A stretch of 27,192 nt of DNA, taken from IMG/VR virus record IMGVR_UViG_2874920711_000004, positions 1 through 27,192 of that record, one strand, 5' to 3'. The DNA is from a virus (taxonomy: Duplodnaviria; Heunggongvirae; Uroviricota; Caudoviricetes). The position numbers were made by a program. Below, piece after piece: positions 13,301-16,300 of the stretch. The number at the start of each line of letters is the position of its first letter. Within the stretch, counting starts at the first letter, position 1.

Positions 13301-16300
13301 ATCTCCAGCTTTTCCAGAACAAGCTTTCGCAATGGTAAATTTTGATCCAGTAAGCACGGTTTTGGCCTTTTCGCCATTCTGTTGGCTCGGTTATTAGCAT
13401 CAACAGCTTTGTAATAGCGTCTGCCCCGATTACGCTGAACTTCACGTGAGATCGTCGAAGGACTGCGATTCAGCGCAGTAGCTATCGCACGAATGCTCAT
13501 TTTGGCTGACAAACCAGCTCGTATCTCCTCGCGCTCAGACAGTGTCAGGTGAGCTACAGCCCGCTTACGCTCATGGGGTTTTATGCCGCCAGTATCCCTT
13601 AACATAGTGAAGATCGTTCCGGGTTTTGAACCCAGGATATTCGCTATTTCACTGAAGCCTGTTCCGTTCTTCCATAGTTCAAAAACAGAGGCTTTTTCCT
13701 CTGCTGTAAATGTTCGTCTCATTCAAAAAACCTCCGCAACCCCATGTTTTCACATAACTGTTGCGTTGACCAATTGAATCTACAGTAGCCTTTTTTAATA
13801 TTTCATTCTCCATTTCAATGCGTTGTAGCTTTTTCCTCAGCTTACGTATTTCGATTTGTTCTGGTGTTATCGGAGAGGCTTTTGGTGTTTTGCCCTGACG
13901 CTCATCACGCAGTTGTTTGACCCATCTTGTCATTGTGGAAAGGCCAACATCCATAGCTTTGGCGGCATCTGCCACCGTGTATTTCTGGTCAACAACCAGT
14001 TGAGCGGATTCGCGTTTAAACTCTGCGCTAAAATTTCTTTTTTTCATTGGAGCACCTGTGTTGTTCTGAGGTGAGCATATCACCTCTGTTCAGGTGGCCA
14101 AATTCAGTGTGCCACTTCAGAGAAAGCAACGTGGGGTGTGTGGTCGCTCGAATATGGAGAGGAGAAACTTGATGCTGATGATGCGCTAATTCACCGTGAA
14201 GTTGTTGGATATCTTCCTATTTGCAGAATTGAAGGAGCGCATCCTGAAAGCGGTTTCGATGAAGATTTCCAAATGGAACAGCAGGCCAATGCTGAATTCA
14301 TCGCCGCAGCCAATCCGGCTACTGTGCTGACACTGCTGAGCGAGCTGGAAACAGCAAAAAAGCGCATAGCAGAACTGGAAGCCAAACCTGTAAGCCAGAC
14401 TTACAAGTTGAATGAGATGTCGGGCAACTCTCCGGTAATTCCGGATGGTTGGATAAGCTGTAGTGATCGAATGCCTGAAAAGGGCCAGAACGTACTTATT
14501 TCGGTGAATTTCGATAGCTCTCTGGTTGAACCGCTAATATGCTCCGCACGCTATACCGGAGGTACATTCCGGCGTGGAGATGTAACGGTTAAGCCAGGTA
14601 ATGGTATTGAACAGGCAACCCACTGGATAGACTGGCCCCCTGAATCTCCAGACAACCAGTATCACTTAAATAAGTGATAGTCTTAATACTAGTTTTTAGA
14701 CTAGTCATTGGAGTACAGATGATTGATGTCTTAGGGCCGGAGAAACGCAGACGGCGTACCACACAGGAAAAAATCGCAATTGTTCAGCAGAGCTTTGAAC
14801 CGGGGATGACGGTCTCCCTGAACCGCCCCGGGTTTCCTGGAGAGTGTTTTATCTGTGAACTCAGGCTGCCAGATCATCGTTTCCGATGGAAGCATAATAA
14901 GCTTTTTCTGCTTCTGCCGGAGGAGTATGGCCCAGCCTTTCCAGAACCATACGGACTGCCCGTTGACGGACTTCGGGGGAAAAACGAGTATTTTTAGTCA
15001 TCCTGTTTACCTCTTTCTCAGGAAGTTTAGTCTCCAGGATTCCCGGGGCGGTTCACCCTCGTTGCCCGGCAACATGGTGTAGCAGCCAGCCAGTTATTTC
15101 TCTGGCGTAAGCAATACCAGGAAGGAAGTCTTACTGCTGTGGCCGCCGGAGAACAGGTTGTTCCTGCCTCTGAACTTGCTGCCGCCATGAAACAGATTAA
15201 AGAACTCCAGCGCCTGCTCGGCAAGAAAACGATGGAAAATGAACTCCTCAAAGAAGCCGTTGAATATGGACGGGCAAAAAAGTGGATAGCGCACGCGCCC
15301 TTATTGCCCGGGGATGGGGAGTAAGCTTAGTCAGCCGTTGTCTCCGGGTGTCGCGTGCGCAGTTGCACGTCATTCTCAGACGAACCGATGACTGGATGGA
15401 TGGCCGCCGCAGTCGTCACACTGATGATACGGATGTGCTTCTCCGTATACACCATGTTATCGGAGAGCTGCCCACGTATGGTTATCGTCGGGTATGGGCG
15501 CTGCTTCGCAGACAGGCAGAACTTGATGGTATGCCTGCGATCAATGCCAAACGTGTTTACCGGATCATGCGCCAGAATGCGCTGTTGCTTGAGCGAAAAC
15601 CTGCTGTACCGCCATCGAAACGGGCACATACAGGCAGAGTGGCCGTGAAAGAAAGCAATCAGCGATGGTGCTCTGACGGGTTCGAGTTCTGCTGTGATAA
15701 CGGAGAGAGACTGCGTGTCACGTTCGCGCTGGACTGCTGTGATCGTGAAGCACTGCACTGGGCGGTGACTACCGGCGGCTTCAACAGTGAAACAGTACAG
15801 GACGTCATGCTGGGAGCGGTGGAACGCCGCTTCGGCAACGATCTTCCGTCGTCTCCAGTGGAGTGGCTGACGGATAATGGTTCATGCTACCGGGCTAATG
15901 AAACACGCCAGTTCGCCCGGATGTTGGGACTTGAACCGAAGAACACGGCGGTGCGGAGTCCGGAGAGTAACGGAATAGCAGAGAGCTTCGTGAAAACGAT
16001 AAAGCGTGACTACATCAGTATCATGCCCAAACCAGACGGGTTAACGGCAGCAAAGAACCTTGCAGAGGCGTTCGAGCATTATAACGAATGGCATCCGCAT
16101 AGTGCGCTGGGTTATCGCTCGCCACGGGAATATCTGCGGCAGCGGGCTTGTAATGGGTTAAGTGATAACAGATGTCTGGAAATATAGGGGCAAATCCACT
16201 GGATGCCGCTACCAGAACCGCCGCAGGAGGTGAAGTGATGGACGATAACAGCGATAATGTTATCACCCTGGTGCAGCCAAAATCAGAGGAGGAAGGACTT

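Follow-up and report, generated by a model that had tools for sequence, protein, structure and literature searches.

An IS2 copy in the viral DNA catalogued as IMG/VR record IMGVR_UViG_2874920711_000004 (positions 1 to 27,192; this whole stretch of 27,192 nucleotides was analysed and is called the window) is 1571 bp long instead of 1331 bp. What are the 240 extra bases, and did they come to this site as a short element in its own right? A sequence-only reading of the window had taken them for a non-coding element resembling a miniature inverted-repeat transposable element (MITE), inserted into the IS2 gene insC and inactivating it. We find that the surplus is very probably an internally deleted copy of the insertion sequence (IS) IS629/IS1203, 237 bp long, together with the CCC made by IS629 insertion, and that the interior of the element was lost in place.

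Identity of the insert

The insert starts TGAACCGCCCCGGG and finishes CCCGGGGCGGTTCA, and the surplus in IS2 is accounted for to the base by the 237-bp element and a duplicated CCC (3), which make 240. The parts of the insert are as follows.

14819-15055, minus strand (relative to IS629's own orientation; the orfA end faces right): internally deleted IS629, 237 bp, running TGAACC...GGTTCA
14819-14843, plus strand: IS629 terminal inverted repeat of the orfB end (inverted repeat right, IRR), TGAACCGCCCCGGGTTTCCTGGAGA
15031-15055, minus strand: IS629 terminal inverted repeat of the orfA end (inverted repeat left, IRL), TGAACCGCCCCGGGAATCCTGGAGA as read on the minus strand
14816-14818: IS629 target duplication CCC (3 bp), left copy; canonical IS2 has a single CCC here
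15056-15058: IS629 target duplication CCC (3 bp), right copy
14937-14944: deletion junction, marked by the one copy of the 8-bp direct repeat CTTTCCAG that survives
15001-14861, minus strand: remnant open reading frame (ORF) of 46 aa, in which the first 21 residues of OrfA continue in frame into the final 25 of OrfB

These borders lie 2 nt and 5 nt further left than the 14821-15060 first proposed, and the insC break falls after nucleotide 100, inside the Leu34 codon, not exactly between two codons as had been described. The imperfect inverted repeat of about 25 bp noticed at the ends is real: the 25-nt arms are complementary at 23/25 positions, and dinucleotide shuffles of the window lead one to expect 0 such pairs.

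Comparison with an annotated IS629 of 1310 bp, with OrfA and OrfB annotated (LC567824.1), identifies both halves of the insert. Bases 1-126 are identical to the orfB end at 126/126 positions, and in a megablast against phage records the same bases match elements annotated ‘IS3 family IS629’ at 100%. The last 126 bases align with the orfA end at 97.6% identity, and the last 119, from the CTTTCCAG repeat on, match it at 118/119 positions, with one single-nucleotide polymorphism (SNP). In the insert, 126 bp from the orfB end thus meet about 111-119 bp from the orfA end. Terminal inverted repeats, subterminal sequence and 5′-TG...CA-3′ tips all match IS629, and the 3-bp duplication CCC falls within the 3-4 bp reported for this element (PMC3271280). 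The autonomous element with the same terminal repeats that the earlier reading had proposed to look for is IS629 itself. That reading had not recognised the repeats as the ends of any IS in the window, and the window indeed holds no parent IS, with no further IS629-like sequence found in it; the ends are recognisable all the same as those of IS629/IS1203.

Like IS629/IS1203, an IS3-family element of Shigella and E. coli (1310 bp), the remnant has both terminal regions with their 25-nt inverted repeats, the orfA ribosome-binding region, the orfA start codon, the orfB stop codon and a 3-bp target duplication. Unlike it, the remnant is without 1069-1073 bp that comprise most of orfA, the frameshift site, the pseudoknot and nearly all of orfB with its DDE domain, and it is unable to encode transposase. 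Of the equipment of an autonomous IS629 (orfA and orfB, a programmed -1 frameshift and a DDE transposase), 21 orfA and 25 orfB codons are left. Judged by its sequence, the 237-bp insert is a defective IS629 derivative and not a functional member. It had been correct to propose a discrete element that is not autonomous, ends in terminal inverted repeats and is foreign to canonical IS2.

We found no sign that the remnant does anything. It had been said to contain no plausible ORF; the 46-aa minus-strand fusion does exist, but is almost certainly a functionless by-product. An exact look-up of its product gave no called gene anywhere, and the product is unusable for counting copies. Rfam at gathering thresholds reported nothing in the 237 bp, and the predicted fold (z = -6.7) pairs the terminal repeats only, which in our view does not point to a structured RNA. 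The remnant itself is functionless.

The ancestral state of the locus

The 131-aa product of the gene that follows IS2 (16238-16633) led to the orthologous prophage region in nine other assemblies. The same IS2 junctions occur in five of them: L007 (CP026836.1), L009 (CP026845.1), L011 (CP026875.1), L014 (PSSP01000001.1) and L016 (CP026877.1). In all five, insC holds a near-full-length IS629, measuring 1306, 1303, 1306, 1306 and 1286 bp, respectively, and the nucleotide of insertion, the orientation and the CCC flanks of these Shigella copies are all those of the window. The flanks common to the window and the five loci are ...GGTCTCCC on the left and CCCTCGTTG... on the right, or, as 20-nt flanks, ...ACGGTCTCCC and CCCTCGTTGCC..., respectively. 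Two further assemblies (L010 and L013) have an empty site, where the 193-aa DUF551 gene is uninterrupted and CTGGA occurs once, and the remaining two (L012 and L015) gave neither the IS2 junctions nor an exact match to the empty site.

The resident copies also have sequence features in common with each other and with the remnant. A 4-bp deletion in orfB, relative to an O157 copy of IS629, is common to all five, and the G variant that is the sole SNP of the window remnant is found in four of the five, the fifth (L009) having a 1-bp gap at that position. Resident IS629 has decayed stepwise among these loci, with a further 20-bp deletion in L016 and three single-base deletions in L009; the window's loss of 1069 bp is the extreme.

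The Ead/Ea22-DUF551 protein that IS2 truncates in the window (179 aa, 14138-14677) maps to chromosome CP026824.1 (GCA_002949875.1), and sequence identical to this DUF551::IS2 fusion is annotated in Shigella dysenteriae only. The window lineage is most likely S. dysenteriae, chromosome CP026824.1. A protein identical to the 179-aa fusion is VDG92110.1, from S. dysenteriae, and two accession numbers away lies VDG92108.1, an 86-aa fusion of InsC′ to full-length IS629. Because both are from S. dysenteriae and are near in accession, the full-length state appears to be present in the same species.

The deletion junction

The sole 8-mer common to the first and last 200 nt of IS629 is CTTTCCAG. In full-length copies it occupies positions 119-126 and 1188-1195 (1192-1199 in the O157 copy), and the exact junction sequence of the 237-bp element is GCCTTTCCAGAACCATACGG. 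Deletion in silico between the CTTTCCAG repeats of the L007, L014 or L016 copy yields a 237-bp sequence that matches the window with 0 mismatches. Since five orthologous copies are near-full-length and the deletion product is identical, it was full-length IS629 that inserted and inactivated IS2, and the miniature form came later. The earlier claim that the insertion inactivated IS2 stands in that insC is disrupted; the cause was the full-length IS629 and not the small element.

The locus would then have been built in four steps. IS2 would have entered a lambdoid prophage at an Ead/Ea22-DUF551 gene, with duplication of CTGGA, and a full-length IS629 would have inserted into codon 34 of insC, duplicating CCC and costing IS2 both its OrfA regulator and its OrfAB transposase. 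The nested IS2::IS629 would next have been inherited by several S. boydii and S. dysenteriae lineages, with the 4-bp frameshift deletion in orfB already there. Finally, the window lineage would have lost 1069 bp in one step between the CTTTCCAG repeats, 118 nt and 111 nt from the ends, most likely by replication slippage or another short-homology, RecA-independent process. Such a deletion would spare the terminal inverted repeats at both ends as well as the target duplication, and would create the 46-aa orfA′-′orfB fusion ORF, which has no meaning. We infer the order of the first three steps and the molecular mechanism of the fourth; the identity of the element, the common insertion site, the full-length ancestral state and the exact junction are observed.

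We also considered a stepwise origin, from 1310 to 260 to 237 bp, with slippage across the 23 bp from one CTTTCCAG copy to the next, an idea prompted by the G SNP of a 260-bp element in E. coli that is described below. It was dropped because the resident Shigella copies carry the G SNP and yield 237 bp directly, and the 260-bp element is independent and at another locus.

Four points weigh against the account given here. The choice between slippage and another short-homology process is read from the junction only. The deletion is present in one assembly only, and an error there is judged unlikely from the assembly rather than from reads. The adjacency of VDG92108.1 and VDG92110.1 is one of accession numbers, not of sequence. 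Further copies of the 237-bp element may lie in the rest of the source genome and in plasmids, outside the scans made, a circumstance taken up in the next section.

Further copies and other deleted IS629 elements

Megablast did not find the junction in 5,426 complete E. coli genomes, 72,556 plasmids (PLSDB) or 50,697 phage records (INPHARED), and exact-pattern scans that allowed 0-23 extra bases at the junction gave 0 matches in GTDB species representatives, IMG/VR and JGI metagenomes. Megablast matches that covered the full insert proved to be two separate pieces, from other IS629 copies or deletion derivatives, save for one 260-bp sibling. Two E. coli matches that combined IS2 with IS629 (H41 and H42) were rejected as adjacent, unrelated insertions whose site differs from that of the window.

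The sibling is a 260-bp mini-IS629 in E. coli 11899A_LBHALD (L002:1436-1695; NZ_CP130447.1 1995292-1995551), where it lies in a prophage tail-fibre gene, is flanked by a TAC duplication and is unannotated in RefSeq. In related strains the same site holds a 1310-bp IS629 with the same TAC (L019), and in others it is empty (L020). By comparison with these strains, the 260-bp element is an independent in-place deletion; its junction has a 2-bp microhomology at 130/1179, whereas that of the window lies in the 8-bp repeat at 119-126/1188-1195.

Deleted copies of other kinds also came up. IS629 ends lie only 380-880 bp apart in about 200 complete E. coli genomes and 89 plasmids (H1-H40 and H176-H200), arrangements that look like other, larger internal deletion derivatives of IS629/IS1203. 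One of about 745 bp, adjoining nikB, recurs on many large plasmids and was probably inherited with the plasmid backbone. An IS629 copy with a ‘unique internal deletion’ has been reported in O55:H7 (PMC3271280).

Type I MITEs have been described as parent elements shortened by internal deletion and moved in trans by a co-resident transposase (PMC6382973), and in anatomy the remnant resembles them, MITEAba12 from ISAba12 being an example: it is small (237 bp), has its parent's inverted repeats (25 nt, 23/25) and a target duplication of the parent's length (CCC), and lacks a transposase gene. It differs in what defines MITEs in practice, namely dispersal to several sites. The databases scanned and the window, which together leave out the remainder of the source genome, held no set of same-structure copies at different sites, and the second copy with its own target duplication that one might have looked for was in neither. 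The element is single, it sits exactly at the position of a full-length parent, no relatives with the same junction were detected, and arrival as a short element is at odds with the five relatives, whose IS629 of 1286-1306 bp occupies that very site in the same orientation. The remnant has the architecture of a MITE and there is no sign of its ever having moved.

A more novel reading accepts the in-place deletion and adds to it that the remnant is a newborn type I MITE, with both IS629 ends intact and perhaps more copies elsewhere in the source genome or its plasmids. We consider this improbable. If it were true, a functional transposase of the IS629 type, encoded elsewhere in the Shigella genome, could circularise and re-insert the remnant, and the locus would be a dated example of the birth of a MITE, with the ancestral full-length state kept in sister genomes.

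Alternative explanations

One alternative is an assembly artefact, by which the strain would hold a full-length IS629 in IS2 that the assembler collapsed. The deletion allele is on one contig only, and the locus is crowded with repeated IS copies and hard to assemble, as such an artefact would have it. Against this, the junction lies exactly in an 8-bp direct repeat and the product is clean, as a biological short-homology deletion would leave them, and repeat collapse normally drops whole copies, not the interior of one. The contig, moreover, is a 4.97-Mb chromosome, and the analogous 260-bp allele comes from an independent E. coli assembly. We regard an assembly error as very unlikely because the junction is clean and within the repeat.

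IS629 is subject to excision and deletion events in enterohaemorrhagic E. coli, which are treated in the literature on the IS-excision enhancer, so that a transposase or such an enhancer, and not passive slippage, might have catalysed the deletion, acting on the resident copy in trans. Transposase events, however, cut at the end of an IS. Here the breaks fall in a direct repeat, 118 and 111 nt from the ends of the element, and orfB of the resident copy was frameshifted beforehand. Since neither IS end has been altered, nor the target duplication, we give a transposase-driven event scarcely any credence.

This analysis began from the proposal that a 237-bp MITE-like element, moved by an IS629-type transposase acting in trans, inserted here as a small element and made the CCC itself. 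In its favour are the type I anatomy of the remnant (237 bp, intact 25-nt repeats, a 3-bp repeat of IS629 length, no transposase) and the origin described for MITEs by internal deletion, with movement through a co-resident transposase (PMC6382973). For the window copy, however, it is effectively refuted. Five relatives have near-full-length IS629 at the same nucleotide, with orientation and CCC unchanged, and one deletion is a far more parsimonious course than a second, independent hit by a small element at the same position combined with loss of the full-length copy. The remnant, moreover, equals the product that a deletion in such resident copies is predicted to give, SNP included, and its junction was unmatched in any of the collections scanned. 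What had been described as an inserted MITE-like element is a deletion derivative of IS629.

The host IS2 and its insertion site

The length first noted for the IS2 copy, 1571 bp rather than 1331 bp, was borne out, as was the surplus of 240. The copy and its parts are listed here.

14628-16198, plus strand: IS2 copy, the host element, 1571 bp, or 1331 bp without the insert and one CCC
14623-14627: IS2 target-site duplication CTGGA, left copy, inside the prophage Ead/Ea22-DUF551 gene and read directly in the sequence
16199-16203: IS2 target-site duplication CTGGA, right copy
14719-14818, plus strand: insC (orfA) 5′ part, nucleotides 1-100; its translation equals K-12 InsC up to ...PGMTVS(L)
15059-15324, plus strand: insC 3′ part, nucleotides 101-366, severed from the start codon
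15282-16187, plus strand: insD (orfB, DDE integrase core), 301 aa, intact; Pfam rve and HTH_21
14719-14997, plus strand: chimeric ORF of 92 aa, InsC residues 1-34 and then read-through into the IS629 remnant

Taking out the 240 bp rebuilds an IS2 of 1331 bp, with 8 mismatches to the IS2A annotated at 381260-382590 of E. coli K-12 (NC_000913.3), and this rebuilt copy encodes an intact InsC of 121 aa. The 240 bp are absent from K-12 IS2A, which has a single CCC at this place; their presence in canonical IS2 would have spoken against a foreign element. With its length restored, its IS2 ends, the CTGGA duplication, the reconstructed InsC and an intact insD, the host element is IS2. Because insC is split, insD is predicted not to be expressible as an OrfAB fusion. 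The 92-aa chimeric ORF has been called as a gene on a single contig, CP026824.1, and its 90% cluster has one member.

Prophage surroundings

The lambdoid prophage around the locus is degraded and crowded with insertion sequences, among them an IS600 cut by an IS30 and IS3- and IS66-family transposases. The prophage also carries Rha/Ash, GamL, KilR and ORF6N antirepressor-like genes, an integrase and a split ipaH.

A second nested IS pair lies at 11668-14083, where an IS600-type element on the minus strand (orfB 11668-12486, orfA-like 13679-14083) is cut by an IS30 transposase gene (12571-13722). This IS600::IS30 arrangement, beside a tyrosine recombinase gene, is found in 26 complete E. coli genomes with at least 80% of the query covered. 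Further transposase genes are of the IS3 family, at 330-1370 and 3561-4430 near a helicase gene, and of the IS66 family, at 24271-25233. The helicase gene itself appears to be split into two overlapping ORFs on the minus strand (4728-5878; ResIII/DEAD 5306-5878 and Helicase_C 4728-5327), which suggests a frameshift.

Rfam matches above the gathering score include isrK (9502-9578) and C4 antisense RNA (9603-9690), at the start of the Rha/Ash-type antirepressor-like gene (9586-10383), a region that resembles a P1/P7- or Gifsy-type immunity module. Two ORF6N-domain, antirepressor-like genes of 260 aa each stand in tandem at 17103-17885 and 18085-18867. The start of the second is overlapped by an Rfam match to sRNA-Xcc1 (18087-18170, 78 bits), a family model that may capture coding sequence. 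An ipaH-type effector lies in two pieces with LRR_TTSS and NEL E3-ligase fragments (20784-21347 and 21678-22544); its orthologue in L014 is one gene of at least 587 aa, and the split gene of the window is probably a pseudogene.

Significance

The locus records ordinary IS decay in a Shigella prophage, a process known in kind, and not a new mobile element, and beyond annotation its significance is little. It does carry a caution for the reading of such loci, namely that inverted repeats together with a target duplication do not prove transposition by the short element itself. The nesting of IS629 within IS2 within a prophage gene is an inherited marker across several S. boydii and S. dysenteriae lineages, and the 1069-bp deletion, private to one lineage, could serve as a strain marker. 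The remnant is an example of MITE-like architecture arising in place via a short direct repeat.

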